Below are positions 5,837 through 23,236 of a stretch of DNA of 64,000 nucleotides, one piece after another (position 1 is the first letter of the stretch; every line of letters starts with the position of its first letter). The translations under genes were made by a program, and so were the position numbers. The DNA lies in IMG/VR virus record IMGVR_UViG_3300010279_000462. One strand, 5' to 3'. The DNA comes from a virus (Duplodnaviria > Heunggongvirae > Uroviricota > Caudoviricetes). Under the pieces are notes generated by a model, which worked only from the letters and a program-made list of their open reading frames with translations, was not told the DNA's origin and did not search any database.

Positions 5837-6212
5837 CACATTGCCGGCAGTTAAGAGCTTGTCGGAAGTTAAGACCTTGCCGGCAGCCAAGACCCCGTCG
5901 GCAGATAAGACTTTCCAGCCGCAGGAGAACCCTGAATGCTACGAGAACCTGGCGAATGCCATTGTCTTGCAGGCGTTCAAGGACTATAAGCGCGCACTGT
6001 GGAAGCTGTCACATGATCCGTATGACATTGACGCCGCAAGAAATAAGAAGAAGCTGGATCGTTTCTTCGATTCCAACTGGTATCGGCTGCTCACGGATGT
6101 GGATGCCGCTATTCTGGTGGGAGAAGCAAAGCGTCAGGTAGAGGACAGGTACGAGAAGCAGCAGAGGGCGATCCAGAGGTCGCGGGCGAGAAGAGCTGCC
6201 TTTGCCATGTAA
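5823..6212 (+). CDS. hypothetical phage protein
   Basis: Starts MQQSNT with RBS AGGAGGAAAACG upstream. It sits in the long ORF 5397-6212 but in the frame that follows the 5120-5836 gene. Confidence 0.45.
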   Translation: MQQSNTLPAVKSLSEVKTLPAAKTPSADKTFQPQENPECYENLANAIVLQAFKDYKRALWKLSHDPYDIDAARNKKKLDRFFDSNWYRLLTDVDAAILVGEAKRQVEDRYEKQQRAIQRSRARRAAFAM

Positions 6213-6243
6213 AACAAAGTCGGTCAGGAAGGAGGGCTTGACC

Positions 6244-6792
6244 ATGAACGAGGAAGCAAGCAACGCACAGGAAATCACAAAATCCGAACACTACATGGAA
6301 AAAGCCAGAGAACTGGCCGATTCCTATCCGCGTCTTCTGGAAAAGCGGCGGGAGCTGAAAGAGCAGATCGATGAATCTGCTGCTTGGCTGTACACACGGG
6401 ACGAGGTCATCTACAAGCTGTCGCAGGGTGCGCATGAGCAAGGTGAGCGCGTCAAGACAAGCGGCACTTCCAACCCGGTGGAGCGCACGGTCCTCAACTG
6501 CGACAAGGTGATGGCCTCCATGAACCGGGAAATCCTGAAACAGCGGGACGCCGAGCTGATGGAGCCGTACCGCCGAGTCTGCGAGGACATCGAGTTGTTT
6601 GAAATCGGCTTGCGCAGTCTGAAAGGGCAGACCCGGCAGGTTGCTCAGGAACTTTTCGTGCAGCGGAAAGCCATCCCTGCCGTGACGGATGCTGTCGGCA
6701 AACCCATCGGCCGAAAGACCGTGGAGGCTGAACGGGAGAGGGCACTTGCCGGCATTGCTAAGACCTTGGAACGATTGGAGGTGGCAGTTTGA
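6244..6792 (+). CDS. hypothetical phage protein
   Basis: Starts MNEEAS with RBS GGAAGGAGGG. 183 aa. Confidence 0.5.
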   Translation: MNEEASNAQEITKSEHYMEKARELADSYPRLLEKRRELKEQIDESAAWLYTRDEVIYKLSQGAHEQGERVKTSGTSNPVERTVLNCDKVMASMNREILKQRDAELMEPYRRVCEDIELFEIGLRSLKGQTRQVAQELFVQRKAIPAVTDAVGKPIGRKTVEAERERALAGIAKTLERLEVAV

Positions 6793-7241
6793 AAAACACA
6801 GAGGAAGTCACAGAGGAGATGAGCCGTCTGGTCATCTCGCTGTGCGATAAATACCGCAGGATTTACACGGAGGAGCTGAAAGCCAAGGCGGAACTTCACG
6901 ACTATGCAAAGTCCTCAGCGGAGGCGGTCTATCCCAAGGAAAAGGAAATGTACGAGAAGCTCTCCGCCGATGCTTCTACACGGTGTCTGATGGCCTATCA
7001 GTGGCGGCGGGACTTCAACATTGCCTTGCAGAAGGTGGAACCGCTCAAGGCAAGGCTGGTGCTGGAGCAGCACTTGATCCACGGAATGCCCCTGAAAGCC
7101 ATTGTCGGTGATCGTGGCAAAACCATGGGAAGAACCACTGCATCGCGCTACAAGCAGATCGGAATCTGGGCTTTTGCCGGGGAACTGGAGAAGATTCTCC
7201 CGGAGCTGGACAACAAGGAAAAATATATCTACGAAAAGTGA
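6789..7241 (+). CDS. putative phage transcriptional regulator (ArpU/sigma-region-4-like HTH)
   Basis: 150 aa. C-terminal HTH-like segment LKAIVGDRGKTMGRTTASRYKQ. Located at the end of the early operon. Assignment is tentative. Confidence 0.4.
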   Translation: MKNTEEVTEEMSRLVISLCDKYRRIYTEELKAKAELHDYAKSSAEAVYPKEKEMYEKLSADASTRCLMAYQWRRDFNIALQKVEPLKARLVLEQHLIHGMPLKAIVGDRGKTMGRTTASRYKQIGIWAFAGELEKILPELDNKEKYIYEK

Positions 7242-7520: not shown

Positions 7521-8120
7521 ATGGGTCGAAAGAATAAGAATGGGCGTCCGAAGCCCCATGTGAATAAGTACATCAACCAGAAAGGCAAGCTGCTCAAGAA
7601 GCAACCGTCGCTCAAGAAACGAATGCTCCCTCGCAAGGAGCGCAGCACACTGAAGGCGGAGGCAGAGATTATCTCTAAGGTGACCGCTCCTGCGCCGCAG
7701 TCGGTACGCCGGTTTGAGATCTGGTTTGCCGAGCTTGGCAACCATTACGGCAGCTCCGTGCAGAGCGGCAGCCGTCCGGTGCTGGTCATGAGCAATGATG
7801 TGGCAAACCACTACTCCAGCACCTTGACGGTGATCCCGATGACCACCGTGATGAAAAAGCTGGAACTGCCCACGCACATCCCGGTGTCGGAGGCGGATTG
7901 CCAGATGTACGGCAGCCACACCTATCTGCGGGAGTCTATCGCTCTGGCAGAACAGGTCACGACCATCGACAAGAAAGCCCTGCGCAATGTCCTGTGCCGA
8001 GTGACCTCTGCCGAAAAGCAGAAGGAAATCGAGCAGGCACTTGCGGGCTTCTTCAATATGGCTGCTGCGAACACAGTGGCACCTGATACCACTACCAACG
8101 AGGAGGCGAGAACATGGTAG
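7521..8120 (+). CDS. MazF/PemK-fold toxin-like protein with Lys/Arg-rich N-terminal extension
   Basis: Core FEIWFAELGNHYGSSVQSGSRPVLVMSNDVANHYSSTLTVIPMTT...LPTHIPV matches the PemK/MazF pattern. There is an N-terminal ~60-aa basic extension. RBS AAGAGGTGA. Confidence 0.65.
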   Translation: MGRKNKNGRPKPHVNKYINQKGKLLKKQPSLKKRMLPRKERSTLKAEAEIISKVTAPAPQSVRRFEIWFAELGNHYGSSVQSGSRPVLVMSNDVANHYSSTLTVIPMTTVMKKLELPTHIPVSEADCQMYGSHTYLRESIALAEQVTTIDKKALRNVLCRVTSAEKQKEIEQALAGFFNMAAANTVAPDTTTNEEARTW

Positions 8121-10516
8121 ACATCAAGAACATCCCGGTCAAGCTGAAAAATGACTGCCGGTTCTGCGTCTGGAAGTTTGAGAAGCGCAGCGGGCAGAAA
8201 ACCAAGATGCCGTATAACCCGGCAACCTCAGAACGCGCCAAAATCAACGACCTGCGCACCTTTGCGGATTTCAAGACCACCCTGATGACCTATGCGATGG
8301 GCGGTTTTGACGGCATCGGCATTGCGGTCGGCAACGGCATCGGCGCATTCGATATCGACCATTGCATTCGAGAGGACGGTACGCTGAATGACACAGCGGC
8401 GACCGTCCTTTCTATTTTCCCCTCGGCATATGTGGAGAAGTCTCCGTCCGGCCAAGGACTGCGCGGCTTCTTCTGTGTGCCGGAAGACTATGTTTTCGAT
8501 AAGACGGTCTATTACATCAACAATCGGAGCAAAGGGCTGGAAGTGTATATGCCCGGTGCGACAAACCGCTTCGTCACCGTGACGGGAGATGTTTACCGCA
8601 CAGGCGAGATTCCCAATGACCCGGAAGCCATGACCACGCTGCTTGATTCGCTGATGAAGCGGTCGAAGCAGGTGCAGAACAATCAGCTGCGCCACCACTC
8701 CTACCTGAGCGACGATGCGGTCATTGCACACGCAGAGGAAGCCGGCAACAGTGATAAGTTCAAAAAGCTGTATGCCGGTGACTGGCAGGAGCTTTATGAC
8801 AGTCAGTCTGACGCAGATATGGCAATGCTGTCTATTCTGGCTTTCTGGTGCGGGTGTGATGAGGAACAGATGGACCGCATCTTCCGCACCTCCGGCTTGA
8901 TGCGTGACAAGTGGGATCGCAAACAGGCCGGAACGACCTATGGTGCAATCTCCATCCGAAACGCTGTCAACACGGCGACTTCTGTCTATGTGCCGGTCAA
9001 CGCACAGGATATCGTGGACGAGGAGTTTTCCAATCTCGACCCGGAAGCAAAAAGTCCAGAGTATCAGCCGGATATCTCCAAGCTGACCCTGTCTCTGGAG
9101 GAGATGGCTCCGCACACGAACCCCCGCTATGGCAGAGATGAGATCGGTATGGGCAATATGTTCGCCGATTTCTTCAAGCCAATTGCCCGATACAACAGTG
9201 AGCGCGGCATCTGGTATGTCTATGACGGGAAAGTCTGGCAGCCGGATATGGAAAACCTCAAAGTTGCAGAGCTGGCAAAGCTGCTGGCGGACAAGCTGTA
9301 TGTGTTCGCCTTGACGATCACAGAGGAGGACACCAGAAAACGGTTCATCGACCGAGTGAAAAAGCTCCAGCTGCGCAAACACCGGGAGACGATGCTGAAA
9401 GATGCGAAGTCTGTGTTCCCTCTGTCCATGCGCAGTTTCGACAGCGATATTTACCTGTTCAACTGTCAGAACGGAACGCTTGATCTGCGCACGATGGAAT
9501 TTCGGGAACACCGCCCGGAGGACTATCTCACAAAGGTCTCCCCGGCTGTGTATGACCCGGAAGCGGACTGCCCGCGTTGGCGAACCTTTATTTCGGAGAT
9601 CATGCAGGACGACAAGGCGAGAGCAGACTATCTGCAGAAAGCCATCGGCTACGCTTTGACCGGCGACACACGAATGGAGTGCTTGTTCATCCTGTACGGC
9701 CCGACTTCCCGAAACGGTAAAGGCACGACGATGGAGAGCATCCTGCGCATCATGGGAGAGTACGGCAAGAACGCTGACCCGACCATGCTGCAAGCGAAGT
9801 TCAATGCACAGAGCGGCGGCCCTTCTGAGGAAATCGCGCGTCTTGCCGGCGCACGGTTCGTCAACATCTCGGAGCCTGCAAAGAAACTGACAATCGATGC
9901 GGCTTTGACTAAACGACTGACCGGCAACGATACAATCACGGCCCGGTATCTGCATGAGAACAGCTTCGAGTTTCGTCCGAACTTCAAAATCTTCATCAAT
10001 ACCAACCACCGTCCGAATATCACGGACCTTACGCTGTTCGATTCAGGTCGAATCAAGATTATCCCTTTTGACCGGCATTTCAGCGAGAGCGAGCAGGATA
10101 AGGACCTGAAGACCACATTTGCAAAGCCAGATAATATGTCCGGCATTCTGAACTGGATGCTGGAAGGCTACAGGCTGTTCCGCAGCCAAGGACTGGAAAT
10201 GCCGGACTCTGTCATCAATGCGACTGAGGACTACCGCAAGGCATCGGATAAGATCGCACAGTTCTGCGAAGCGTGTCTGGTGTCAAAGCCGGGGTCTATG
10301 CTGCGAAGTAAATCGGTTTACAACCGATACAGGCAGTGGAGCGAGGCCAATGGTTACCACGCGGAAGGTGTAAAAGGCTTCAAAGAGGAATTCAAGAAAC
10401 ACTACAAGGAAGATCGCCGCAGACCCAGTGATGGTGGGGAGAAAACCACGGTGGTTCTTGATGTGGACTTTTTGGTGGACGATGATGATCCACCTCCTGA
10501 AATTATCCCTGTATGA
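8114..10516 (+). CDS. primase-polymerase / P4-family primase with C-terminal SF3-type helicase
   Basis: N-terminal prim-pol-like DGIGIAVGNGIGAFDIDHC. C-terminal Walker A ILYGPTSRNGKGTT typical of the phage/plasmid primase P4 C-terminal domain. Confidence 0.85.
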   Translation: MVDIKNIPVKLKNDCRFCVWKFEKRSGQKTKMPYNPATSERAKINDLRTFADFKTTLMTYAMGGFDGIGIAVGNGIGAFDIDHCIREDGTLNDTAATVLSIFPSAYVEKSPSGQGLRGFFCVPEDYVFDKTVYYINNRSKGLEVYMPGATNRFVTVTGDVYRTGEIPNDPEAMTTLLDSLMKRSKQVQNNQLRHHSYLSDDAVIAHAEEAGNSDKFKKLYAGDWQELYDSQSDADMAMLSILAFWCGCDEEQMDRIFRTSGLMRDKWDRKQAGTTYGAISIRNAVNTATSVYVPVNAQDIVDEEFSNLDPEAKSPEYQPDISKLTLSLEEMAPHTNPRYGRDEIGMGNMFADFFKPIARYNSERGIWYVYDGKVWQPDMENLKVAELAKLLADKLYVFALTITEEDTRKRFIDRVKKLQLRKHRETMLKDAKSVFPLSMRSFDSDIYLFNCQNGTLDLRTMEFREHRPEDYLTKVSPAVYDPEADCPRWRTFISEIMQDDKARADYLQKAIGYALTGDTRMECLFILYGPTSRNGKGTTMESILRIMGEYGKNADPTMLQAKFNAQSGGPSEEIARLAGARFVNISEPAKKLTIDAALTKRLTGNDTITARYLHENSFEFRPNFKIFINTNHRPNITDLTLFDSGRIKIIPFDRHFSESEQDKDLKTTFAKPDNMSGILNWMLEGYRLFRSQGLEMPDSVINATEDYRKASDKIAQFCEACLVSKPGSMLRSKSVYNRYRQWSEANGYHAEGVKGFKEEFKKHYKEDRRRPSDGGEKTTVVLDVDFLVDDDDPPPEIIPV

Positions 10517-10560
10517 TCTGACTTATGCCATAGTGCTTGCCACACAGTGAAAGCATGAAA

Positions 10561-10601
10561 AGCCTGAAAAACCGCGTAATTACAGCGTTTTCAGGCTTTT
10601 T
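10561..10601 (+). terminator. rho-independent terminator
   Basis: AGCCTGAAAA...TTTTCAGGCT 10-bp stem followed by TTTT, directly after the primase gene. Confidence 0.7.
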
Positions 10602-11003
10602 GAAAGCGACTGGGGCAGTTGGGGCAACGAAAAACGGTTATTCTTATTATTACTTTCTTTTATATGTATTTTATATTTTATCTGCCACATCTGCCCCAAA
10701 AGATAAAAATAGAAAAATCAGAAAAGAAAAAAGAACGGAATATCAAGAAAAATAAGGGCTTTGAGGGCTGAAAATGTATTTTCAATGCAAAATGAGTTCT
10801 GCCACAGCCTGCCACAATCTTTGTGAGCCTATGGGTGTGCAGGGCTTTACAGAAATACGGCACTGCCTTTCAAGAATATGCCCGATGTTTTACAGGAACA
10901 CGGCATTTTACAGGAACACGGCAGGCAGTCTTTGTGGGAGCCCATATTTGTGGGCAAGGGCAAAGTCGGCCTGTTTTGTGATACATGAGAGAGGAGAACA
11001 ACT

Positions 11004-11456
11004 ATGTCGAAGAACAACCATGAAGATTTTTTGGGATGTCATACTCGCGGATATGAGGACATCAAGCTGCTGAAAATTTATCCGCTTCCGCCTGACACAA
11101 CCGTGATGGTCGTGGACACGGACAAGGACGACAATGTCGTGATGCGTGACTGTGTTGAAACCGGTAACTCCTACTGTCTGGCGTTGGTGGAGGAAAATGG
11201 CGAGAGGGCAGTTTATCCGTTTGCTCTGTCAACCATCTACGGCGTGGACTTGAGAGCGACAGTAATTCCCATTCGTCGTTGCCCCAGGTGTGGCAAACGG
11301 CTGCGTCCTCACATGGAGGAGGGCGATACCGGCACGTTGTACTACACCTGCAATCGCTGTGGTCATCGGGAGGAGAGTTGGCTGGACGCTGAGGAGCTGG
11401 ATAAACCCGAAGAATCCTGTGGCAGCTTTTTGGAGGAGGATGAAATCTATGAGTAA
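11004..11456 (+). CDS. hypothetical zinc-ribbon protein
   Basis: CPRCG...CNRCG zinc ribbon. Follows an AT-rich intergenic region. Confidence 0.5.
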   Translation: MSKNNHEDFLGCHTRGYEDIKLLKIYPLPPDTTVMVVDTDKDDNVVMRDCVETGNSYCLALVEENGERAVYPFALSTIYGVDLRATVIPIRRCPRCGKRLRPHMEEGDTGTLYYTCNRCGHREESWLDAEELDKPEESCGSFLEEDEIYE

Positions 11457-12516
11457 AATCATCACCTGTGAACAGGTCAGCAACGGTCACCCGGACAAAA
11501 TCTGTGACCAGATTGCGGATGCCATTGTGACCGACATCCTCCAGCACGACAGGAACGCCCGTGTGGCAATTGAGTGTCTGCTGAAGAAGAACCAGCTCTT
11601 TATCGCCGGCGAGGTCACGACCGACTACCAGCCCAACTACCACCAGCTCGTCCACAATGTGCTCACCGGCATCGGCACCGACAAGCTGGGCTTTGATTTC
11701 AGTGACCTGCTGCGCATCGGCATTCTGGTGGACAAGCAGTCGCCGGACATCGCACTCGGTGTGGATAGGGGCGGCGCCGGTGACCAGGGCATCATGTACG
11801 GCTACGCCACCAACGAAACGGCGGAGCAGATGCCGATTCCCTATATGGTCGCCACCAAGTTCCTGCAACTGCTGAAGGCACACCCCAGCAAGATGTTCCG
11901 TGCAGATGCCAAGGCGCAGGTCAGCTACGACTATGACACTGGCCGGATCACCACCTTCCTCTGCTCCGTGCAGCACAGCCCGGATGTAGAGGTCAGCGAC
12001 TTCCGCCATATCATCGAATCCATGATGGTGCTTGCCGCTTGTGAGTACGGACTGGATGGTGACTTCCAGAAGCTCGTCAATCCCACCGGCCGCTTCGTGC
12101 TGGGCGGCAGCTATGCAGACTGCGGTGTGACCGGTCGGAAGCTGGCGTGTGATACTTACGGCGGCATCGGTCGAATGGGTGGCGGCGCACTGTCCGGCAA
12201 AGACCCCACCAAAGTGGATCGCTCCGCTGCGTATATGGCACGGAAGATTGCCAAGGACATCGTGCAGGCCGGGTACGCTGACAAGTGCGAAGTCCAGCTG
12301 GCCTACGCCATCGGCGTGGTTCAGCCGGTGGGCGTATCGGTGGAGTGCTTCGGTACGGAGCATGAAGCCCCGGAGTTCATCGAAGCCTACGTCCGCGACA
12401 GCTACGACCTAACTCCGCAGGGCATCATCCAGCGGCTGGGTCTGCTGGATGTTGACTATAACAAGGTCAGCGCCTACGGTCACTTCGGCAAGCCTGGTCT
12501 GCCGTGGGAGGAATGA
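11449..12516 (+). CDS. metK: S-adenosylmethionine synthetase homolog, phage-encoded and compact (356 aa)
   Basis: Hallmark MetK motifs GHPDKICDQIADA, GAGDQGIMYGYA, GGGALSGKDPTKVDRSAAY. The ATG overlaps the upstream stop (ATGAGTAA). Confidence 0.85.
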   Translation: MSKIITCEQVSNGHPDKICDQIADAIVTDILQHDRNARVAIECLLKKNQLFIAGEVTTDYQPNYHQLVHNVLTGIGTDKLGFDFSDLLRIGILVDKQSPDIALGVDRGGAGDQGIMYGYATNETAEQMPIPYMVATKFLQLLKAHPSKMFRADAKAQVSYDYDTGRITTFLCSVQHSPDVEVSDFRHIIESMMVLAACEYGLDGDFQKLVNPTGRFVLGGSYADCGVTGRKLACDTYGGIGRMGGGALSGKDPTKVDRSAAYMARKIAKDIVQAGYADKCEVQLAYAIGVVQPVGVSVECFGTEHEAPEFIEAYVRDSYDLTPQGIIQRLGLLDVDYNKVSAYGHFGKPGLPWEE

Positions 12517-12519: not shown

Positions 12520-12879
12520 GTGCCGCGCAGACCCAAGGTGCCGTGCAGACACCCCGGATGCCCGGAGCTGATTGAACCCGGCACTCTCTACTGTGAGAAG
12601 CACCTGCCCCTGCATCCAGAAGTGACGCGCCCTGCTGGGAAGCGGGGCTACACACGGCAGTGGCAAAAAATCAGCAAGGCGTATCTGCAAGCCCATCCAC
12701 TCTGCGCCGAGTGCATGAAGCAGGGCAGATACACGAAGGCCACCGTGGTAGACCACATCACACCGCACCGTGGAGATGCCAAACTTTTCTGGGACGAGAA
12801 TAATTGGCAGCCTCTTTGTAAGCGATGTCACGACCGGAAGACCTTCACCGAGGACATCAACCCGGTGTATCACTACTGA
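12520..12879 (+). CDS. HNH endonuclease
   Basis: CAEC...VDHITPHRGD...WQPLCKRCHDRKT is an HNH motif with zinc-binding cysteines. Confidence 0.85.
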   Translation: MPRRPKVPCRHPGCPELIEPGTLYCEKHLPLHPEVTRPAGKRGYTRQWQKISKAYLQAHPLCAECMKQGRYTKATVVDHITPHRGDAKLFWDENNWQPLCKRCHDRKTFTEDINPVYHY

Positions 12880-13280: not shown

Positions 13281-13583
13281 ATGCAGGATTACACAGCGGA
13301 AATGGTCAAGGACATGGCATTTGCCTTCTGTCCGCAGTGCGGAGCTGCCATCATTCCGAACCACCGGGGTAGACCACGGAAGTTCTGCTCCCCGGAATGC
13401 CGCTCCAAGTGGAACAACACTCATCCACGACCGCAGAACTGGAAGACCGTGCGGTCAAAGGTCTGCCCGGTGTGCGGCAGGGAGTTCTCCTACCGGCACC
13501 AGTACGGACTTCCGAGAAAATATTGCAGTCGTGCCTGTGCCAACACGGGCAGGGCGAAGGGAGAAAACAGAAATGGGGAATAA
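13281..13583 (+). CDS. hypothetical protein with duplicated zinc ribbons
   Basis: Two CPxCG...RKFCSxxCR / CPVCG...RKYCSRAC repeats. Confidence 0.5.
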   Translation: MQDYTAEMVKDMAFAFCPQCGAAIIPNHRGRPRKFCSPECRSKWNNTHPRPQNWKTVRSKVCPVCGREFSYRHQYGLPRKYCSRACANTGRAKGENRNGE

Positions 13584-13806
13584 GGTGATTGGCGTGTTCC
13601 CGATGTTCAACACCGGGGGCATCTGTGTACATGAGATTGACCACGCAGAGGACAAAATTCTTGCTTCCATGAACGGGGAGAACCCGGAGTGGTATCCGAT
13701 TACGGAAAAGCCGCAGTCGGAGATGGGCGGGGATGGCGATGACTTGGAGTCGGGCTTTTTGTTCGGCTCCTTTTTCGTGCCGTTCTCTGAGGTCATGCGC
13801 GTGTGA
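13573..13806 (+). CDS. small hypothetical protein
   Basis: 77-aa ORF that overlaps its neighbours at both ends. Confidence 0.35.
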   Translation: MGNKVIGVFPMFNTGGICVHEIDHAEDKILASMNGENPEWYPITEKPQSEMGGDGDDLESGFLFGSFFVPFSEVMRV

Positions 13807-15086
13807 AGGAGGACTACATGAAAGCAACCGCTGAACTGAAAATGCTGCCGGTATCTGTACTCAAGCCGGCCGCATACAATCCCCGGAAAAAGCTGAAGCC
13901 GGGGGATAAGGAGTACGAGAAGATCAAGAACTCCATCACGGAGTTCGGGTTTGCCGACCCGCTGGTGGTCAATGCCGATATGACAATTATCGGAGGACAC
14001 CAACGCCTGACTTGTGCGATTGATATGGGCTATACAGAAGTGCCTTGTGCGGTGGTGGACATCGACAAGACCAGAGAGAAAGCTCTGAACATTGCGCTCA
14101 ACAAAATCACGGGCGCGTGGGATGACACCCTGCTGGCCGACCTGCTCAAAGACATCGAAGAATCCAACTTCGATCTGGGCAAGACTGGATTTGAGCCGCC
14201 TGAAATCGAGACGCTGTTCAACAAGGTCCACAGCAAAGAAGTCAAGGAAGATGACTTTGATGTGGAGTCCGAGCTGAAGCAGCCGTGCTTCTCCAAAGCG
14301 GGCGACCTCTGGATGCTGGGCAAACACAGAGTTCTGTGCGGCGATTCCACCAAGGCAGAATGCTACGATACCCTGATGGACGGAGTAAAAGCCAACCTCG
14401 TGCTTTCGGACCCTCCGTACAATGTGGATGTGGAAGAAACGGCTGGCAAGATCATGAACGACAACATGGGCGACTCGGAATTTTACGAGTTCCTGCTGGC
14501 AGCGTTCAAGCAGATGCACGGACATCTGGCGGATGATGGCTCCATCTACATCTTCCATGCAGACACCGAAGGGCTGAACTTCCGAAAGGCATTCAAGGAT
14601 GCCGGGTTCTACTTGTCGGGGTGCTGCATCTGGAAGAAAAACGCACTGGTGCTGGGCCGCAGCCCTTACCAGTGGCAGCATGAGCCGTGCCTTTACGGGT
14701 GGAAGCAGAAAGGTAAGCACCAGTGGTATTCCGACCGCAAGCAGACGACAATCTGGGAGTACGACCGTCCGAAAGCCAATAAGGATCATCCGACCATGAA
14801 GCCCATTGGTTTGATGAGCTATCCTATCCGCAATTCCACCATGACCAACGGCATCGTCCTTGACCCGTTCCTCGGCAGTGGTTCGACCCTGATCGCCTGT
14901 GAGGAGACCGACCGCGTCTGCCGAGGTATTGAGCTGGACCCGAAGTTCGTGGATGTCATCGTGAAGCGGTATATCGAACACAGCGAAGGCCGCTATGAGG
15001 ATGTGTATGTCCTTCGGGATGGCCAGAAACTGAAGTTCGATGAGGTCGCTTCCTTTGAGCCGGAACAGGAGGCCGCAGATGGCTGA
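13803..15086 (+). CDS. ParB-like nuclease domain fused to an amino (N6-A/N4-C) DNA methyltransferase
   Basis: N-terminal ParB-N motif (PLVVNADMTIIGGHQRL). DPPYN (motif IV) precedes FLGSGST (motif I), which is the beta-class order. Confidence 0.85.
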   Translation: MKEDYMKATAELKMLPVSVLKPAAYNPRKKLKPGDKEYEKIKNSITEFGFADPLVVNADMTIIGGHQRLTCAIDMGYTEVPCAVVDIDKTREKALNIALNKITGAWDDTLLADLLKDIEESNFDLGKTGFEPPEIETLFNKVHSKEVKEDDFDVESELKQPCFSKAGDLWMLGKHRVLCGDSTKAECYDTLMDGVKANLVLSDPPYNVDVEETAGKIMNDNMGDSEFYEFLLAAFKQMHGHLADDGSIYIFHADTEGLNFRKAFKDAGFYLSGCCIWKKNALVLGRSPYQWQHEPCLYGWKQKGKHQWYSDRKQTTIWEYDRPKANKDHPTMKPIGLMSYPIRNSTMTNGIVLDPFLGSGSTLIACEETDRVCRGIELDPKFVDVIVKRYIEHSEGRYEDVYVLRDGQKLKFDEVASFEPEQEAADG

Positions 15087-15849
15087 TGCAAAATGTGTCC
15101 TCATCCACGATAACTTCCAGAACTTCAAGTCCTACAACATCCCCAAGGCACAGCTGGTGATCGCCGACATTCCGTACAACATCGGAACGGACTTCTACGC
15201 CAGCCGGCCGGACTGGTATGTGGGCGGGGACAACAAGAACGGCGAGAGCAATAAGGCACGGAAGGCGGCGTTCAATACCGACTTCACCTTCAACATCGCA
15301 GAGTACTTCCACTTCTGCAACCGGCTGCTGAAGAAGGAGCCGGCAACAGGAGAGAAGGGTGCGCCCTGTATGATCGTGTTCTGCGCGTTCCAGCAGATTC
15401 CGAAGGTCATCACCGAAGCGGAGAAGTACGGCTTCAAGAACTACATCCCGCTGACCTTCTGCAAGAACTACAGTCCGCAGGTCTTGAAGGCCAACATGAA
15501 GATCGTGGGTGCAACGGAGTATGCGCTGGTGCTGTACCGCAGCAAGCTTCCGAAGTTCCGCAACCTCGGCGAAGACGGCAAGCCCCACATGATCTTCAAC
15601 TGGTTCGACTGGAAGCGGGACGGCAAGGACTATCCGAAGATCCATCCTTCCCAGAAGCCAGTGTCCGTGCTGAAACGCCTGATTGAGATCTTCACCGACC
15701 CCGGCGATGTGGTCATTGACCCCTGCGCCGGAAGTGGCTCGACCCTTCGTGCTGCAAGAGAGCTGGGGCGGGATAGCTACGGATTTGAAGTGTCTAGAGA
15801 TTTCTACCTGAAAGCCAGGGAGCAGATGCTCGGAGAGGAGGCCGTATGA
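15079..15849 (+). CDS. DNA amino-methyltransferase (beta class)
   Basis: DIPYN motif IV and DPCAGSGSTL motif I. ATGGCTGA overlap with the upstream gene. Confidence 0.8.
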   Translation: MADAKCVLIHDNFQNFKSYNIPKAQLVIADIPYNIGTDFYASRPDWYVGGDNKNGESNKARKAAFNTDFTFNIAEYFHFCNRLLKKEPATGEKGAPCMIVFCAFQQIPKVITEAEKYGFKNYIPLTFCKNYSPQVLKANMKIVGATEYALVLYRSKLPKFRNLGEDGKPHMIFNWFDWKRDGKDYPKIHPSQKPVSVLKRLIEIFTDPGDVVIDPCAGSGSTLRAARELGRDSYGFEVSRDFYLKAREQMLGEEAV

Positions 15850-18047
15850 GCAAGGAACAGAATATGACGCTGACCCTCGGAAGTCTGTTTTCAGGCTCCG
15901 GGGGTTTTGAATTGGGAGGGCTTCTTACCAATCAAATCGTGCCGGTATTCAATTCGGAGATTGAACCATTTGCCATCCGGGTCACGACCAAGCGTCTGCC
16001 GGAGGTCAAGCATTACGGAGATGTGTCTGCCCTGAACGGTGCAGACCTGCCACCTGTGGACATCATCACCTTTGGCAGTCCTTGTCAGGATATGTCCATT
16101 GCTGGCAAGCGAGATGGTCTGGATGGTTCACGGTCCAGCCTGTTCTATGAAGCAATCCGAATCGTGAAGGAAATGAGGTGTAAGACCAATGGAGCAAAAC
16201 CAAGATTTATCGTGTGGGAGAATGTGCCGGGCGCCTTCTCCTCCAACAAAGGACAAGACTTCAAGGCAGTCCTCGAAGCCGTCATCGGTGTTAAAGAACC
16301 GTCCGCCGAGGTGCCTGCGCCTGATAAAAAAGGCTGGCCCGACGCTGACTACTATCTGGGAGACGGATGGAGCGTCGCGTATCGAGTTCTTGATGCGCAG
16401 TGGTGGGGCGTGCCCCAACGCCGAAAACGCATCTACCTTGTCGCAGATTTTACAGACCACAGTGCCCCCAAAGTACTATTTGAGTCCGACGGCCTGTCTG
16501 GGTATTCTGCGGAGAGCTTCCGTGCGTGGCAAAGAGCTGCCGCCTGTGCTGAAGACAGCACTGGAACGGCAGGCGGCTGCGGAAGAATCTGCCTGAACGA
16601 CCAAGGCGGGGCGCAGATGGATGTGTCCGAAGAAGTGACCGGGACACTCCGTGCGCAGGAGCATGGGCATCAGCCCTGCGTCCTTGAAGCGGCTGGTTTC
16701 TGTACGGAACACTCCGCCAATGCCAGAAGCATCGGGTACGAGGAAGAACGGTCGCCTACACTCCGGGCCGGCGTTGTGCCAGCCGCCATTGCACTGGAAA
16801 ATCATCCGACCGACAGCCGGGTGAAGATTTCCAAGGATGGCATGGTGCAGACGCTGACCAGCCGGTGCGGCACGGGCGGTGGGAACGTTCCTCTGATCAT
16901 GGATGGCGCGGAGAATCCTCCAGCGGTCACCTTGAAGATCCGTTCCGGGTGCGAGGGTGGCGGCAAGGGAGCCATCTGGCAGGAGGACAAGTCCGCCACT
17001 CTTGGCTGTAATAACGACCAGACAGTTTTCGTGCCGAAGTGCTACGGTGTCTGCTCGAAAGCCAGCCATTCCATGATGAGCGACAATCCGCACAGCGGCT
17101 TCTATGAAGCCAGCACTTCCCGGACGCTGGATTGCAGCGGCGGTGACCCGACCTGTAATCAGGGTGGGCTGTGTATCTGCGAACCTGTTGTCTGCGTGGA
17201 TCAGGGCGGCGGCAAGTCCAACTGTACGGTAGACGAACAGGTTGCACCGCCGCTCGCCTGTACCCATGGAGGTTCACCGGCTGTGGCATTCACGCAGAAC
17301 CAGCGGGATGAAGTCAGAGATCTGGGCGAGAAAGCCGGCTCCCTGTCCGCACAGCCGGGAATGAAGCAGCAGACCTTCGTGGCGCAGCCGGAGGATGTGA
17401 CCGCGTTCCATGTGAACCAACGCAATGAACTCATTGACCTGCACGGAAAGTCCGGCGCGCTCATGGCGACCCGGAGCGACCAGATGCAGACCTTCGTGCT
17501 GCAGGGCAGCATGATCGGGCGCAGTGATGAGAACGGTCCGCAGGGGGATGGCATCAATGAGGATGTCTGCTTCACCCTGGATGCCACTGACCGTCACGCT
17601 GTTTGCGCTTCCAAGGATGTGTACGCTATGACCACCGGCTCCTTCATGAAGGTGGAGGAGAATGTGTCTCCAACCCTTATGGCGAGGGACTATAAAGACC
17701 CGACCACCATCGCGCCGGTGCCGCAGGATATCAGCTACACGGTCCGCCGCCTGACCCCGACCGAGTGTGCCCGGCTGCAGGGCTTTCCGGATTGGTGGTG
17801 CAGTGACCTCGAAACCGAGAATCCCACGGAAGCGGATATGGCTTTCTGGCAGGATGTGTTTGAAACGCACCGCAGACTTGTGACCCATGCCAAGAAGCCG
17901 AAAACGGAGAAGCAGATCCGCAAATGGCTGGCTGACCCGTATTCGGATGCGGCAGAGTATAAGCTCTGGGGCAACGGCGTTTCTTTGCCCATAGTTTTTT
18001 TCGTTCTAAGTGGCATCGTATGGGCAGCAAATAAGGATTTTTGTTAA
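15846..18047 (+). CDS. DNA (cytosine-5)-methyltransferase with a very large variable region (733 aa)
   Basis: Motifs FSGSGGF (I), GSPCQDMS (IV), ENVPG (VI), TECARLQGFPDWW (IX) and GNGVSLP (X) are present. The final ~24 codons are supplied by the RIT left inverted repeat. Confidence 0.85.
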   Translation: MSKEQNMTLTLGSLFSGSGGFELGGLLTNQIVPVFNSEIEPFAIRVTTKRLPEVKHYGDVSALNGADLPPVDIITFGSPCQDMSIAGKRDGLDGSRSSLFYEAIRIVKEMRCKTNGAKPRFIVWENVPGAFSSNKGQDFKAVLEAVIGVKEPSAEVPAPDKKGWPDADYYLGDGWSVAYRVLDAQWWGVPQRRKRIYLVADFTDHSAPKVLFESDGLSGYSAESFRAWQRAAACAEDSTGTAGGCGRICLNDQGGAQMDVSEEVTGTLRAQEHGHQPCVLEAAGFCTEHSANARSIGYEEERSPTLRAGVVPAAIALENHPTDSRVKISKDGMVQTLTSRCGTGGGNVPLIMDGAENPPAVTLKIRSGCEGGGKGAIWQEDKSATLGCNNDQTVFVPKCYGVCSKASHSMMSDNPHSGFYEASTSRTLDCSGGDPTCNQGGLCICEPVVCVDQGGGKSNCTVDEQVAPPLACTHGGSPAVAFTQNQRDEVRDLGEKAGSLSAQPGMKQQTFVAQPEDVTAFHVNQRNELIDLHGKSGALMATRSDQMQTFVLQGSMIGRSDENGPQGDGINEDVCFTLDATDRHAVCASKDVYAMTTGSFMKVEENVSPTLMARDYKDPTTIAPVPQDISYTVRRLTPTECARLQGFPDWWCSDLETENPTEADMAFWQDVFETHRRLVTHAKKPKTEKQIRKWLADPYSDAAEYKLWGNGVSLPIVFFVLSGIVWAANKDFC

Positions 18048-18064
18048 ATTATGAGCCGATAAAA
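17976..18064 (+). repeat. RIT left terminal inverted repeat
   Basis: 17979-18004 is the exact reverse complement of 21601-21626. Imperfect similarity continues inward to about 18064. Confidence 0.7.
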
Positions 18065-18098
18065 TTCCATGATACCAACCTTTTATGATAGCTGAAAA

Positions 18099-18130
18099 GC
18101 CGGTAAAAGTAAGACCTTACTTTTACCGGC
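18099..18130 (+). promoter_or_regulatory. perfect 15-bp-arm palindrome in the ritA leader, followed by TGTATAAT
   Basis: GCCGGTAAAAGTAAG-AC-CTTACTTTTACCGGC. TATAAT lies 8 bp downstream. Confidence 0.4.
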
Positions 18131-18183
18131 TCAGCCTGTATAATGATGTTAGTACCGAACATACAGATTAAAGGTGAGGCATA

Positions 18184-19443
18184 ATGGACAATTTTCTAAC
18201 TGAGACTTCTTCAGCGAAAGTTAAAGACACTCCTACAACTTATACCGTAAAGTCCTTGGTAGAGGACGCAACGACATTTCTTCAATCCAGGGGTGACTAC
18301 CGTGACCGCGTAGTGAACTATATCAAGGGAACATGGCATCAATTTGAAAATTACTGCGAAACCAATAGCATTTTATTCTACCAGTCTGAATACAGTAACA
18401 GATTCATTGAAAGCCTTTCTATTGGTTTACAGCCTCTCAAACCGGAAACCATTAAGCGTAAGGTGGGCAATCTTAAAATGCTCGACCTGTACGCAAAAAA
18501 TGGCACATGGGAGAAGGATGCATTAGATTCCAAACCTAACCTTGAAGCGGAATTTTCTGAATTCATCGCAGCACAGGATGAGTTCTTAAAAACACGTCAC
18601 TATTCGAAATTTTCTTGTGAAACCATTTGTAAACAGACAACAGCTGTACTGAATTATCTTCAGAATAATGAAATCACCAGTTTCTCGGAAATCACTAGTG
18701 ATATCATTTCTGACTATGCTATTTCACTGAAGGGTCATGCAAAAAGTACTATGCGCTGTGAACTCAGCCGAATTAGACAGATTTTGCATAATGCCTACCT
18801 TCTAAAGTATACCGCTGATGATTTGTCCACTTACGTCCCAACGTACAATCTTGGCCAACCCCAAAGCAATGTTAAAATATGGCATTCTAGCGAGATAAAC
18901 AGAGTTCTGTCTGCGGTGGATCGGTCAAATCCTAAAGGTTTGCGGGATGCCGCTTATATCACCATTGCAGCAGAACTTGGGATGCGAAGTAAGGACATTA
19001 CTGACCTTAAGCTTTCGGATATTGATTGGGAAACTTGCACTATCTCGTTTGTCCAGAGCAAAACCGGGAAAGTCAATCCCCTTCCGCTTAATGAAAAAAT
19101 TGGCCGCGCCATTATTGACTATCTGAAAGTCAGACCCGATACGGATTGTGAATACCTATTTGTGAATATGAATCCTCCGTATGGCAAAATGAAGTCGTTC
19201 AATTCATCATTTAACAAGTATGTCAGCCGCTCCGGAGTCACTATTCCTGTTAATGCTCACCATAATCTTCACTCGCTCCGGGCTACCGTTGCGACCAAAC
19301 TTTTGAAAGAGGGCGTATCTCCTGACGATATCGTTTCTTTTCTGGGGCATTCCGACAGGGAGTCGCTTCACAACTATATCCGTATGGATATAGACAGCCT
19401 CCGAAATTGTGCATTGTCTTTTGAGAATGGTGAGTTTGTATGA
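18184..19443 (+). CDS. ritA: tyrosine recombinase RitA-like
   Basis: 419 aa. RBS AGGTGAGG. Motifs HSLRAT...LGHSD...LHNY (R-H-R-Y). Confidence 0.8.
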   Translation: MDNFLTETSSAKVKDTPTTYTVKSLVEDATTFLQSRGDYRDRVVNYIKGTWHQFENYCETNSILFYQSEYSNRFIESLSIGLQPLKPETIKRKVGNLKMLDLYAKNGTWEKDALDSKPNLEAEFSEFIAAQDEFLKTRHYSKFSCETICKQTTAVLNYLQNNEITSFSEITSDIISDYAISLKGHAKSTMRCELSRIRQILHNAYLLKYTADDLSTYVPTYNLGQPQSNVKIWHSSEINRVLSAVDRSNPKGLRDAAYITIAAELGMRSKDITDLKLSDIDWETCTISFVQSKTGKVNPLPLNEKIGRAIIDYLKVRPDTDCEYLFVNMNPPYGKMKSFNSSFNKYVSRSGVTIPVNAHHNLHSLRATVATKLLKEGVSPDDIVSFLGHSDRESLHNYIRMDIDSLRNCALSFENGEFV

Positions 19444-20420
19444 TGCGGGTTTACAAATACACAAGTGGACTATCCACACAGATACAATCCTTTATAGAGG
19501 AAAAGCGTGCTCTTGGATGCAAGTATGAAAAGGAGGCCAAAGTCTTTTATGAAATGGACAGATTTCTAGTTAGGGAAGGAGTTGTTGAGCCAATCCTCAC
19601 TCAGAATGTGGTTGAAAAATGGGTAGAGAAGCGTCCCAACGAGAAAAGAAAAAATCAACGTTGGCGACTAAATTTTACCAAGCGTTTTGTAGCTTATCTT
19701 CTGCTTCACCACTATGAAGCGTATTATCCTGAATACAAAATTTCCTCAAGCGATGACAAATGCTTCGTGCCATACATTTTCACAAACACGGAAATTGGCG
19801 ACCTTATTGCATATTTTAATACCATGAAGCCAAGTAGACAGTATCCTAATGGCCATATCGTACTTCCCTTACTGTTTCTAACACTTATATGCTGTGGGTT
19901 GCGGTCTGGTGAAGTTGCATCGCTTACAGTTAATGATGTTGATATTAAAAACGGCATTCTCACAATCAGAAATGCCAAGCACGGGAAAAGTCGCAGTATT
20001 CCTATTTCTGAAAGTATGTGCCTCAAATATGCTGAATACTATGATTTACTCCATACTAACAGCGACGGTAAGGATTATTTCTTCCCGAATGCACGTGGCA
20101 ACTGTCATCACACCAATGAAATCGAACGCAGATTTAAGGAGGCGCTATGGAACTGCGGCATTCCTTATAAAGGACGCGGTTATGGTCCTAGAGTCCATGA
20201 TCTTCGCCATACTTTTGCAGTTCGCGCCATGCAGAAGATTCGGAAGGAAAAAGGAAGTAATCTTATGGCACTTCCATATCTGTCAGTCTATTTAGGGCAC
20301 TACAACATGAACAAAACACAGCAATATTTGCACCTTGTTGTGGATGCATATCCAGAATTAATTGAGAAGCAGCAAGATTACCTTGGCGAAACAATACCAG
20401 TATGGGAGGTTTCAGAATGA
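19440..20420 (+). CDS. ritB: tyrosine recombinase RitB-like
   Basis: 326 aa. ATGA overlap with ritA. Motifs RHTFAVRA...LGHYNMNKTQQY. Confidence 0.8.
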   Translation: MMRVYKYTSGLSTQIQSFIEEKRALGCKYEKEAKVFYEMDRFLVREGVVEPILTQNVVEKWVEKRPNEKRKNQRWRLNFTKRFVAYLLLHHYEAYYPEYKISSSDDKCFVPYIFTNTEIGDLIAYFNTMKPSRQYPNGHIVLPLLFLTLICCGLRSGEVASLTVNDVDIKNGILTIRNAKHGKSRSIPISESMCLKYAEYYDLLHTNSDGKDYFFPNARGNCHHTNEIERRFKEALWNCGIPYKGRGYGPRVHDLRHTFAVRAMQKIRKEKGSNLMALPYLSVYLGHYNMNKTQQYLHLVVDAYPELIEKQQDYLGETIPVWEVSE

Positions 20421-21436
20421 GAACACCGGACTTTTCAAAATACTTAACGATGTTCCTTGAACACTATCTTCCAGAACTTAAGAATGCCAGCGAGAATACC
20501 TTGGCAACATACAGCGACACTTTCTGCTATTTTCTAACTTATTGTCAGGATGTGGAAGCAATGAAAATTGAGCGAATGTCGGTCAGTGATTTCACTGCGG
20601 AACTTGTTGAAAGATACCTGCACTGGATGGAAACAAGCCAAGGCAATAGTCTTGCAACTCGGAATAACCGACTGGCTACAATCCATTCTTTCGTTAGATT
20701 TTTGCAGCCCAGGGAACCAAAACTGCTACTCAACTTTCAGAAGATTCTTGCAATTCCAACAAAGAAAGCACCACAAAAAACTGTGCAGCCTCTCTCAAAG
20801 GAATCTGTCGCTGTACTACTTCGTCAGCCAGACACATCTACTCTCAAGGGAAGAAGGGATGCAACTGTTCTATGCGTGTTGTATGATACGGCTGCTCGTG
20901 TATCGGAAATCTGCAATCTCCGCATAGAGGATGTGCGGTTTGAGAATCCTCCGCATATTCGCATAATGGGAAAAGGAATGAAAGTGCGTACAGTTCCTAT
21001 TTTGCCAGCGACAGCTATAAACTTAAAAAGCTACCTTATAGAAACGCATCGATTAAAGCCTGAGTGCTATCACTTGCCTCTTTTCGTTAACCGTGATGGA
21101 GAACCCTTTACACGGTCCGGAATCAGGTATATTTTAAACAAATACGTCAAAATGGCCCATGAAATAGATCCATCTATTCCCGAAAGTCTTAATCCCCATC
21201 GTATCAGACATACCAAGGCAATGCATCTATATGAGGCGGTTGATGACCTTATCGATGTCCGTGATTTTCTCGGCCATGCTGATATAAAAACTACAAGTAT
21301 CTACGCTAGATCCAGTCTTGCCAAAAAGAGGAAGGCACAAGAGAAGATTTCGAATTCTCCTGTGCCTGAGATGGCATCTTGGCAACAGGATAAAGGCACA
21401 CTCGAATGGCTTAAAAACTATGGGCGCAAGAAATAG
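20417..21436 (+). CDS. ritC: tyrosine recombinase RitC-like
   Basis: About 339 aa. RBS GGGAGG 7 nt upstream. ATGA overlap with ritB. Motifs HRIRHTKAM...LGHADIKTTSIY. Confidence 0.8.
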   Translation: MRTPDFSKYLTMFLEHYLPELKNASENTLATYSDTFCYFLTYCQDVEAMKIERMSVSDFTAELVERYLHWMETSQGNSLATRNNRLATIHSFVRFLQPREPKLLLNFQKILAIPTKKAPQKTVQPLSKESVAVLLRQPDTSTLKGRRDATVLCVLYDTAARVSEICNLRIEDVRFENPPHIRIMGKGMKVRTVPILPATAINLKSYLIETHRLKPECYHLPLFVNRDGEPFTRSGIRYILNKYVKMAHEIDPSIPESLNPHRIRHTKAMHLYEAVDDLIDVRDFLGHADIKTTSIYARSSLAKKRKAQEKISNSPVPEMASWQQDKGTLEWLKNYGRKK

Positions 21437-21540
21437 CAACGGAGCCCCAAATTATAGCAGGCAGATCAGGATAATTCTTGATCTGCTTTTTTATTGGTAT
21501 ACACCATTACCTATTTGATACTGACTGTAAGGGAGGCGGA

Positions 21541-21629
21541 TTTTATTGGCTTATTTTCTATGACAAATCTTTATTATATGCCCAAACTATTCCAGATAAG
21601 ACGAAAAAAACTATGGGCAAAGAAACACC
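21541..21629 (+). repeat. RIT right terminal inverted repeat
   Basis: Reverse complement aligns with 17976-18064. The outer 26 bp are exact and the inner part is imperfect. Confidence 0.7.
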
Positions 21630-21651
21630 ATTATCGGTTGCAATACATAAT

Positions 21652-23006: not shown

Positions 23007-23160
23007 GCTCCTGACCCCTTATGGGGCCGGCAGATAACCGAGAGCCTTTTTCATTGTACCGATATTACCTCTGAAAATGTACATTATCAAGCGGATTTTC
23101 CGCAATAATGTACACGATCATTGCCCTCGAAGATCGGTGATTATTTGACCCTTTATGGCC

Positions 23161-23189: not shown

Positions 23190-23236
23190 GCACATACCGC
23201 AAGGGGAACAGAACAAGACCAAAGGAGAAGAACACC

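Follow-up and report, generated by a model that had tools for sequence, protein, structure and literature searches.

The 64-kb window (the whole stretch of phage DNA analyzed here) encodes a genuine MetK, i.e., a methionine adenosyltransferase (MAT), which is compact and, judging from its residues and predicted fold, apparently catalytically intact. The carrier is a siphovirus-type phage related to the Ca. Heliusvirales gut phages and to the Streptococcus 'Javan' prophages, and MetK is a long-term cargo of this lineage, sited between the replication and packaging modules. The explanation that we favor, and that we regard as reasonably probable, is that a competent streamlined MetK supplies SAM to the DNA methyltransferases (MTases) of the phage. 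The presence of metK is in itself already known, since the gene has been published as a common AMG of the same phage lineage and of viruses generally.

The metK ORF runs from the ATG at 11449 to the TGA at 12514-12516. This represents 356 codons counting the stop, and the protein is therefore 355 aa long rather than the 356 aa of the original prediction. We favored ATG 11449 as the start because homologs open with MSKIITCEQ. The three MetK motifs quoted in that prediction were all recovered: GHPDKICDQIADA at residue 13, GAGDQG at 109, and GGGALSGKDPTKVDRSAAY at 244. Pfam identified three full-length MetK domains: PF00438 at residues 4-99 (profile positions 3-99 of 99), PF02772 at 108-216 (2-120 of 120), and PF02773 at 218-354 (1-137 of 138). 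The protein scored 397.3 bits against TIGR01034, the NCBI metK equivalog with a cut-off of 309.4 (E = 6e-119), and it matched phrog_1569 from end to end (residues 4-355 on profile positions 2-346 of 346, E = 2.9e-134). Identity to the E. coli MetK structures was ~45-50% (E = 1e-95).

The start of metK had also been predicted to be coupled to the upstream gene by a short overlap. The overlap is real (Table 1), but homologs of the 150-aa upstream ORF are limited to a handful of relatives (L008, L015-L017, and L055), and the coupling is therefore not a conserved feature. This ORF yielded no Pfam match above threshold and no PHROG match; a sub-threshold match to Zn_ribbon_3 was its only signal in Pfam.

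Table 1. Features of the metK region, with the evidence used to assign them.
Feature	Position	Strand	Evidence
150-aa CxxC...CxxC Zn-ribbon-like ORF, accessory	11004..11456	+	TAA overlaps metK start (ATGAGTAA)
Shine-Dalgarno-like GGAGGAGG, 9 nt 5' of metK ATG	11432..11439	+	Read from sequence
metK, compact methionine adenosyltransferase (SAM synthetase), 355 aa	11449..12516	+	Pfam, TIGR01034, phrog_1569, AF2, dN/dS
HNH endonuclease, 119 aa, starts 4 nt past MetK stop	12520..12879	+	Pfam HNH E = 2e-10; phrog_144 E = 4e-38
Small Zn-ribbon protein, 100 aa	13281..13583	+	phrog_2308 and HNH-associated phrogs
ParB_N-fused N6/N4 DNA methyltransferase, 427 aa	13803..15086	+	Pfam ParB_N and N6_N4_Mtase; phrog_498 E = 2e-187
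Second N6/N4 DNA methyltransferase, 269 aa	15040..15849	+	Pfam N6_N4_Mtase E = 1e-24; phrog_67
C5 cytosine DNA methyltransferase, 733 aa	15846..18047	+	Pfam DNA_methylase, 3 stretches; phrog_116, phrog_38038

MATs are obligate homodimers whose active sites form where the subunits meet; they usually assemble as dimers of dimers, and their activities comprise SAM synthesis and tripolyphosphatase. The AF2 model of the window MetK, based on an alignment of 82 sequences, reached a pLDDT of 95.6 and a pTM of 0.93 (an earlier model from 32 sequences at >=76% identity, with a pLDDT of 59, was discarded). Foldseek superposed this model on 7LOO (E. coli) and 6RKC (Ureaplasma) with TMq values of 0.94-0.95 and an rmsd of 1.5-2.0 Å. 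All 16 catalytic and ligand residues that we checked are present: in E. coli numbering, H14, D16, K17, E42, E55, Q98, D118, D163, K165, F230, D238, R244, K245, K265, K269, and D271, whose roles toward methionine, ATP/PPPi, Mg2+, and K+ we take to be established in the MetK literature. The motifs GAGDQG and GGGAFSGKD are present as well. Among 89 phage-context homologs, the checked residues are invariant with a single exception (D238H), and pairwise comparison with 63 relatives gave a median dN/dS of ~0.07, showing purifying selection. The gene is real, and the enzyme is probably active.

It had been proposed that a loss of catalytic Asp, Lys, or His residues would point to a decoy; we found no such loss, with every residue conserved. 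An inactive decoy, or a dominant-negative subunit poisoning host MetK or titrating SAM-dependent defense proteins, would account for the shortened length of the protein and for nothing further. The intact, clade-wide invariant residues, the full MAT fold, the score above the equivalog threshold, and the dN/dS of ~0.07 make such a role very unlikely, and compact homologs also occur genus-wide in non-phage chromosomal contexts of Oribacterium (see below). We view the decoy as extremely improbable and close to refuted. Likewise, nothing in our analysis points to interference with host SAM-dependent defense, which the original prediction had raised as the other possible role of the protein.

As predicted, the window protein is shorter than host MetKs: the 71 cellular MetKs that we fetched are mostly 378-401 aa long (full range 367-415), and that of E. 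coli has 384 aa. E. coli MetK (1FUG, 1P7L, and 7LL3) shares the three-domain fold (TM 0.92-0.95) and the active-site residues of the window protein but is 29 residues longer. Relative to it, the window MetK has five fewer residues in the gating loop at the active site (DRADPLEQ to DRG), four fewer in the central-domain helix-loop (NGTL region), three fewer in the central-domain hairpin (KIV), and 14 fewer at the C-terminus, plus a few single-residue differences. The resulting signature is a gating loop of 7 residues, a helix-loop of 14, a hairpin of 11, and a tail of one residue after PWE. We defined the compact clade by these loop lengths (7, 14, and 11) and a tail of <=2 residues after PWE. 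In the 89 phage-context homologs, gating loops are 7-8 residues long, helix-loops 14, and hairpins 11, and the tail is a single residue in all but two. The two central-domain deletions are absent from all 71 cellular comparators, of which only two have tails of <=3 residues. Gating loops of 7-9 residues occur in 22 of the 71, and we therefore rejected the 5-residue gating-loop deletion as a hallmark of phages. Compactness is thus a trait of the clade in which the C-terminal tail is gone and two central-domain loops are trimmed. The clade-specific deletions fall in central-domain surface loops and in the tail, outside the active site.

We also rejected compactness as an exclusively phage-borne trait, because at two loci (L089 and L165) a compact MetK is encoded on chromosomes of Oribacterium spp. 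(Lachnospiraceae), in non-phage surroundings. The chromosomal protein is 352 aa long and 58% identical to the window MetK, presents the same loop and tail signature, and nests inside the compact clade in an NJ tree. Its gene is surrounded by housekeeping genes in both O. parvum (TrkH/TrkA, PGK, and Band_7) and O. sinus (AsnA, SCIFF/radical-SAM, and Band_7); neither phage genes nor MTases were found near it. The compact form is kept across the genus at 75-92% identity.

One tentative interpretation, which we consider rather unlikely, is that the compact MetKs constitute a distinct streamlined MAT subfamily exchanged between temperate Firmicutes phages and chromosomes, with an altered oligomeric state or regulation. 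Such a subfamily might be characterized by a minimal gating loop, trimmed central loops, and no tail, and would have become fixed in Oribacterium. Tetramerization could be altered by the central-domain deletions and by loss of the tail. The MAT inter-dimer interface is evolutionarily plastic and regulatory, and it varies among bacteria (PMC9202080); our search of the MAT oligomerization literature found no phage MATs. If the subfamily is real, its altered inter-dimer surface may yield, for example, a dimeric enzyme that is weakly product-inhibited or insensitive to inhibitors. Such an enzyme would be fit for a burst of SAM during infection or for resisting factors aimed at host MetK.

Resistance of this kind is central to another explanation, in which MetK maintains SAM when the host, the SAM lyase of a rival phage, or a defense system depletes it or inhibits host MetK. 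The trimmed loops and missing tail might then free it from regulators or inhibitors that act on host MetK. The location of the clade deletions, which spare the active site, would fit this explanation, as would the plasticity of the inter-dimer interface. The SAM lyase (SAMase) of phage T3 contacts the E. coli MetK surface at W215, P212, and T130; of these, the stretch with W215 and P212 has not been conserved in the window MetK. This scenario is nonetheless purely speculative: in our literature search, neither a SAM-depleting defense nor an inhibitor of MetK turned up for these hosts, and we found no paper that casts a phage SAM synthetase as an anti-defense factor; moreover, the compact form in Oribacterium chromosomes indicates that compactness needs no arms-race explanation. 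We judge it very unlikely. Both the T3 SAMase and the window MetK are phage proteins that bear on the host SAM pool in a restriction-modification setting. The T3 enzyme destroys SAM and inhibits host MetK, so that the phage stays unmethylated and SAM-dependent defense is disarmed; the window protein, in contrast, is a predicted SAM maker that travels with MTases. The original prediction drew a contrast with SAM-degrading phage enzymes; the predicted activity is indeed the opposite one, and the proteins are unrelated in sequence and fold: when we searched for a SAM lyase family in Pfam, NCBIfam, and the PDB, only MetK families matched the window protein.

The HNH nuclease and the three DNA MTases expected downstream of metK were all found, the HNH gene beginning within a few nucleotides of the metK stop (Table 1), and metK and the MTase genes form one block on the + strand. 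The HNH gene has a second, weaker match to a TerS-labelled phrog. It lies directly or closely 3' of metK in nearly all related loci and directly 3' of TerL in one relative (L090). Since it matches phage HNH families and adjoins TerL in that relative, a role in packaging is at least as likely as one in anti-restriction. The 100-aa Zn-ribbon protein keeps its position between the HNH and ParB-MTase genes in relatives, and its counterpart in Streptococcus phage phiNJ3 is annotated as a 'zinc-finger protein'. The ParB_N-fused MTase is conserved in relatives at 65-97% identity; the second N6/N4 MTase is found in many of them but not all. In the C5 MTase, we located motifs I, IV, VI, VIII, IX, and X; motifs VIII and IX are separated by ~440 aa containing 11 spaced 'TL-x-A' TRD-like units. 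The protein is a candidate multispecific MTase.

The order primase - MetK - HNH - Zn-ribbon - ParB/MTase - (MTase) - C5-MTase was found in ~85 related loci spanning IMG/VR gut phages, a C. fessum prophage, NatCom Heliusvirales, and Streptococcus Javan/phiNJ3 prophages. It is maintained even where MetK is only 55-63% identical (NatCom and Streptococcus Javan/phiNJ3), and metK is set between the replication module and the HNH, DNA MTase, and terminase genes. None of the 71 cellular comparator loci presented HNH, Zn-ribbon, or MTase neighbors. The linkage is not universal for phage metK: the metK of Faecalibacterium phage FP_Brigit is full-length, yet no MTase is annotated in the ~6 kb on either side of it. 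Because the MTase link is conserved in ~85 loci, SAM supply for self-methylation is the most economical reading. The recurrent gene order supports, without proving, a role in phage DNA methylation; alternatively, synteny could mirror a shared module history instead of functional coupling. Of the predicted role in self-methylation and anti-restriction, the MTase linkage is thus conserved, but the part assigned to the HNH nuclease was overstated, given its position in L090.

According to the explanation that we favor, MetK would convert host methionine and ATP into additional SAM during lytic replication. The methyl donor would then suffice for all three MTases (the ParB-fused N6/N4 enzyme, its N6/N4 neighbor, and the large, probably multispecific C5 enzyme), such that many new genome copies could be methylated quickly. 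Fully methylated progeny DNA would resist restriction in the next host. The activity of the enzyme, the timing of its expression, and a limiting role of SAM in phage DNA methylation are what we infer in this scheme. It is also possible, but quite unlikely in our view, that metK acts as a general methionine/organosulfur AMG, channeling methionine into the SAM/SAH cycle and reshaping host sulfur and one-carbon metabolism, regardless of the MTases nearby. Kieft et al. grouped viral metK with dcm, mtnN, luxS, and ahcY among the organosulfur AMGs, a class widespread in viruses of the human gut. However, mtnN, luxS, ahcY, and other methionine-cycle genes are absent from the annotated ORFs of the window (some small ORFs were not scanned), and the DNA MTases are the only SAM consumers encoded near metK.

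The window encodes TerS, TerL, a portal, and a major head protein, together with PolA, an SNF2 helicase, and a D5-type primase. Its TerL is 76% identical to that of NatCom_42228 and 75% identical to those of the metK-bearing Javan prophages and of metK-carrying NatCom phages, which indicates that metK was inherited with the phage backbone. The module order is that of NatCom_18656, whose record is classified as Ca. Heliusvirales. In this group, K00789 (metK) and K00558 (dcm) are the top two AMGs, found in 58.9% and 67% of genomes, respectively (PMC11283538). The Ca. Heliusvirales NatCom genomes (PV0364xx; de Jonge et al. 2024, PMC11283538) encode MetKs 61-63% identical to that of the window and share the order PolA, helicase, MazF, MetK, HNH, MTases, amidoligase, GGCT, and TerS. 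The window differs from them by the 150-aa ORF overlapping the metK start and by its third MTase. It also carries, after dcm, an insert of three recombinases that none of the relatives we fetched has. Copies of the window MetK at 92-95% identity were found in IMG/VR. The Rfam scan of the window (gathering cut-offs) detected no riboswitch or other RNA element near metK, and no tRNA was found in the window. Promoter and terminator signals between 10300 and 13900 were not above shuffled background, and we therefore do not claim operon boundaries.

The metK gene is annotated in ~90 streptococcal prophages. Viral metK has been catalogued as an AMG generally, with substrate-binding motifs kept, purifying selection, and, in S. 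suis phages, co-occurrence with dcm (bioRxiv 10.1101/2021.01.05.425418). The Streptococcus prophage SAM synthetases (Javan, phiNJ3, phiD12, and 12/111phiA group; PMC8223999) also belong to the compact clade: they are 345 aa long, 54-58% identical to the window MetK, and like it possess a 7-residue gating loop and no C-terminal tail. The neighbors of metK are those of the window as well: primase/helicase, SNF2 helicase, HNH, Zn-finger, adenine MTase, cytosine MTase, and terminase genes. These prophages have Bacilli hosts rather than Clostridia as for the window, and their genomes are smaller (33-60 kb).

Functional data on the Streptococcus prophage enzyme concern host phenotypes in lysogeny and not phage methylation (PMC8223999). 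In S. agalactiae prophage 12/111phiA, deletion of relB-metK or of metK alone ended autoaggregation and lowered glycocalyx and biofilm, and plasmid-borne metK partially restored these traits (PMC8223999). These experiments, the only genetics on a compact-clade phage metK, point to host physiology. It is therefore conceivable, although on balance unlikely, that prophage MetK raises SAM in the lysogen and shifts host physiology through polyamines, quorum signals, and envelope methylation. Phage DNA methylation would then not be its main purpose, a conclusion to which we give the same limited weight. The lineage is temperate, as a copy 93% identical to the window MetK lies in a C. fessum prophage on a 1.09-Mb scaffold (L085), and the fixation of a compact-clade MetK in non-phage contexts of Oribacterium indicates that the enzyme is usable by cells. 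However, metK shares its strand with lytic genes and lies within the replication-to-packaging block, which is not a classic moron position, and no promoter or terminator signal stands above background beside it. The complementation in S. agalactiae was incomplete and, according to its authors, confounded by secondary mutations (PMC8223999). Moreover, lysogenic conversion leaves the tight, long-conserved MTase linkage unexplained.

As one further copy of a catalogued phage AMG, the window metK changes little. The compact MetK family bears wrong or empty labels in GenBank and PHROG ('peptidase', as metK is mis-annotated in the NatCom records, and 'unknown function'), which can be put right. The compact clade represents a naturally minimized MAT of 345-355 aa for enzymology and biocatalysis. 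Finally, as a counterpart to the well-studied destruction of SAM by T3, the metK and multi-MTase block of this very prevalent gut-phage lineage provides a good system for testing whether the methyl donor limits self-methylation and escape from restriction.

The original prediction described a compact S-adenosylmethionine (SAM) synthetase, MetK, whose start overlaps the preceding gene and which lies upstream of an HNH nuclease and three DNA methyltransferases (MTases). This observation was correct, since we recovered the open reading frame, the start overlap with the TAA of the preceding gene, and the three quoted motifs (at residues 13, 109 and 244). The HNH and MTase genes follow on the same strand, and a Zn-ribbon gene also lies between them. 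The protein has 355 residues; the earlier figure of 356 had counted the stop codon.

Positions of metK, its neighbors and the related features discussed in the text
Feature	Sequence	Position	Strand	Remarks
MazF/PemK-like toxin gene	window	7521-8120
150-aa ORF	window	11004-11456		upstream of metK; TAA overlaps metK start as ATGAGTAA
Ribosome-binding site	window	9 nt 5' of metK start		GGAGGAGG
metK	window	11449 (ATG)-12516 (TGA)	+	ORF, 355 residues
HNH endonuclease	window	12520-12879	+	3' of metK
Small Zn-ribbon protein	window	13281-13583	+
ParB_N-fused N6/N4 MTase	window	13803-15086	+
Second N6/N4 MTase	window	15040-15849	+
C5 MTase (dcm)	window	15846-18047	+	733 aa
Inverted repeats	window	17973-18065 and 21540-21632		imperfect, 93 nt, flanking recombinase insert
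Recombinase insert	window	about 18025-21720
Three recombinase genes	window	18184-21436
Duplicate of dcm 3' end	window	21649-21704		about 56 bp
Amidoligase/cyclotransferase block	window	21924-25626
Low-GC3 islet	window	30805-32195
'Peptidase'-labelled MetK	PV036427, PV036428, PV036430, PV036444, PV036445, PV036448	e.g., 7998-9044 (locus L002)
Compact-clade metK	Oribacterium parvum ACB1 (L089)	9998-11056		352 aa, 58% identical to window protein
Compact-clade metK	O. sinus F0268 (L165)	6001-7125

Judged by sequence and predicted structure, the product is a genuine MetK by every available test. All three Pfam MetK domains were matched at essentially full length, the NCBI metK equivalog model gave 397 bits (cut-off 309), and phmmer retrieved E. 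coli MetK structures with E = 1e-95. Alignment to the E. coli enzyme by MAFFT showed that the catalytic and ligand-binding residues, numbered as in the E. coli literature, are all present (H14, D16, K17, E42, E55, Q98, D118, D163, K165, F230, D238, R244, K245, K265, K269 and D271). These 16 residues were invariant across 89 phage-context homologs, with the sole exception of one D238H. Loss of such residues would have pointed to a decoy or inhibitor, and their retention makes this alternative very unlikely. An AlphaFold model based on 82 diverse homologs (pLDDT 95.6, pTM 0.93) was aligned by Foldseek to the E. coli and Ureaplasma enzymes with TM scores of 0.94-0.95 and rmsd of 1.5-2.0 Å; a model from a shallow alignment (pLDDT 59) was discarded. 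In pairwise comparisons with 63 relatives, dN/dS never exceeded 0.25 (median 0.07; dS 0.4-2). A close homolog of 599 aa (P0001, 91% identity), found on a 98.7-kb ENA metagenome contig, presents an internal tandem duplication covering most of MetK (residue 56 to about 282), which could have arisen either in assembly or by true duplication of part of the gene.

The enzyme is indeed shorter than cellular MetKs, which are mostly 378-401 aa long (n = 71 fetched). Compared with the 384-aa E. coli enzyme, the active-site gating loop is shorter by five residues, a central-domain helix-loop by four and a central-domain hairpin by three, and the 14-residue C-terminal tail is absent. These lengths are nearly fixed across the 89 phage-context homologs (gating loop 7-8, helix-loop 14, hairpin 11), and the tail is a single residue in 87 of them. 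Among the 71 cellular enzymes, the tail is mostly 11-18 residues and the gating loop 7-25 (median 22; about 23 in Bacillus and Clostridium types). We ruled out the short gating loop as a phage hallmark because it measures 7-9 residues in 22 of these 71 enzymes as well. Against the same set, the two central-domain deletions were confined to the compact clade, i.e., the shortened MetKs of Ca. Heliusvirales gut phages and streptococcal prophages, and the absent tail nearly so. Compact MetKs formed one clade in a neighbor-joining tree, separate from the host MetKs of Clostridia and Bacilli, in agreement with the published clustering of viral MetKs apart from bacterial ones (Kieft et al., bioRxiv 10.1101/2021.01.05.425418). 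The family corresponds to phrog_1569 in PHROGs (346-position profile), labelled 'unknown function', and the ortholog is mislabelled 'peptidase' in the NatCom Heliusvirales genomes in GenBank.

The window belongs to a tailed phage. Nearly all genes lie on the + strand and include TerS, TerL, portal, major head protein and long tail genes, in addition to PolA, DUF932, an SNF2 helicase, a MazF/PemK toxin and a D5/NrS-1-type primase-helicase. TerL is 75-76% identical to that of Streptococcus 'Javan' prophages and Clostridium phage NatCom_42228, and the module order is that of NatCom_18656, whose record is classified as Ca. Heliusvirales. Dozens of IMG/VR contigs carry a 92-95% identical MetK with the same neighbors, and in Clostridium fessum SNUG30386 a 93% identical copy is embedded in a scaffold of 1.09 Mb (L085). 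We conclude that phages of this lineage are temperate and have gut Clostridia as hosts. The toxin gene lies directly 5' of the primase-helicase gene (7-nt overlap of ends), a position conserved among relatives, and no obvious antitoxin was found for it. A second low-GC3 islet (0.41-0.43) just 5' of TerS holds a gene for a 405-aa ATPase (AAA_14 + DUF4143) together with a 58-aa ORF, neither of which matched a PHROG, and probably represents an accessory or defence-like gene gained recently.

The same order, (primase)-MetK-HNH-Zn-ribbon-ParB/MTase-(MTase)-C5 MTase-amidoligases, recurs in about 85 loci, where MetK identity is 73-95% in gut IMG/VR phages, about 62% in NatCom phages, 55-61% in prophages of MAGs and 54-58% in Streptococcus prophages. 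Not one of these neighbors was found at any of the 71 cellular metK loci. Because this linkage outlasts the divergence of MetK and DNA MTases are the sole nearby gene products that use SAM, the best-supported mechanism is that MetK would provision SAM for methylation of phage DNA. The predicted supply for self-methylation is thus backed by gene linkage, from which we infer the functional connection. Kieft et al. (bioRxiv 10.1101/2021.01.05.425418) framed viral metK as a general organosulfur auxiliary metabolic gene, but no further methionine-cycle gene was found among the annotated ORFs of the window. A counter-defence role, in which MetK would maintain SAM against depletion or resist MetK-binding inhibitors like T3 SAMase, is conceivable but without support: a literature search for such a role of a phage SAM synthetase found nothing. 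Lysogenic conversion, in which a prophage MetK alters host physiology, is plausible and compatible with other roles, since S. agalactiae lacking a compact-clade prophage metK showed altered aggregation, glycocalyx and biofilm, and complementation was partial (PMC8223999). The HNH protein matches phage HNH families; its weaker match to a TerS-labelled PHROG and its position directly 3' of TerL in one relative (L090) suggest that it is more probably a packaging-associated than an anti-restriction nuclease.

The case for SAM provisioning is further strengthened by the C5 MTase. About 440 residues separate its motif VIII (QRRKR, residue 191) from motif IX (RRLTPTE, residue 634), with 11 'TL-x-A' units in between, regularly spaced at 23-42 aa. 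This pattern fits tandem target-recognition domains, as known from multispecific C5 MTases encoded by Bacillus phages. The enzyme is probably multispecific, so that each genome would carry many methylated sites. In relatives the homologous gene spans about 1.9-2.5 kb, a variation in length suggesting that target-recognition domains have been gained and lost. Three tyrosine-recombinase genes in tandem (419, 326 and 344 aa, each with Pfam Phage_integrase) resemble a RIT ('recombinase in trio')-type mobile element that entered at the dcm 3' end. Their GC3 is about 0.40 versus about 0.70 in adjoining phage genes, and the trio was found in none of 80 IMG/VR relatives nor in the C. fessum prophage. 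Two amidoligase_2 and two gamma-glutamyl cyclotransferase (GGACT/AIG2) genes, then DUF4314 and DUF3846, form a block whose position 3' of the MTases is kept across the lineage.

Phage metK of this kind is already known: K00789 (SAM synthetase) and K00558 (dcm) occur in 58.9% and 67% of Ca. Heliusvirales genomes (de Jonge et al., PMC11283538), Kieft et al. catalogued viral metK and described it as keeping its motifs, being under purifying selection and occurring together with dcm, and about 90 streptococcal prophage records have metK annotated. In the literature consulted, we found no description of compact-clade biochemistry or of such genes in Oribacterium chromosomes; both are modest leads. 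There, compact metK sits among housekeeping genes, being surrounded by TrkH/TrkA, oxidoreductase and PGK genes in O. parvum, and by AsnA, Band_7 and a SCIFF/radical-SAM pair in O. sinus; several Oribacterium genomes have annotated homologs at 75-92% identity, the longest contig being 1.09 Mb. The compact form is therefore not confined to phages, and the Oribacterium genes may either have replaced a host gene after transfer from a phage or mark the cellular origin of the phage clade.
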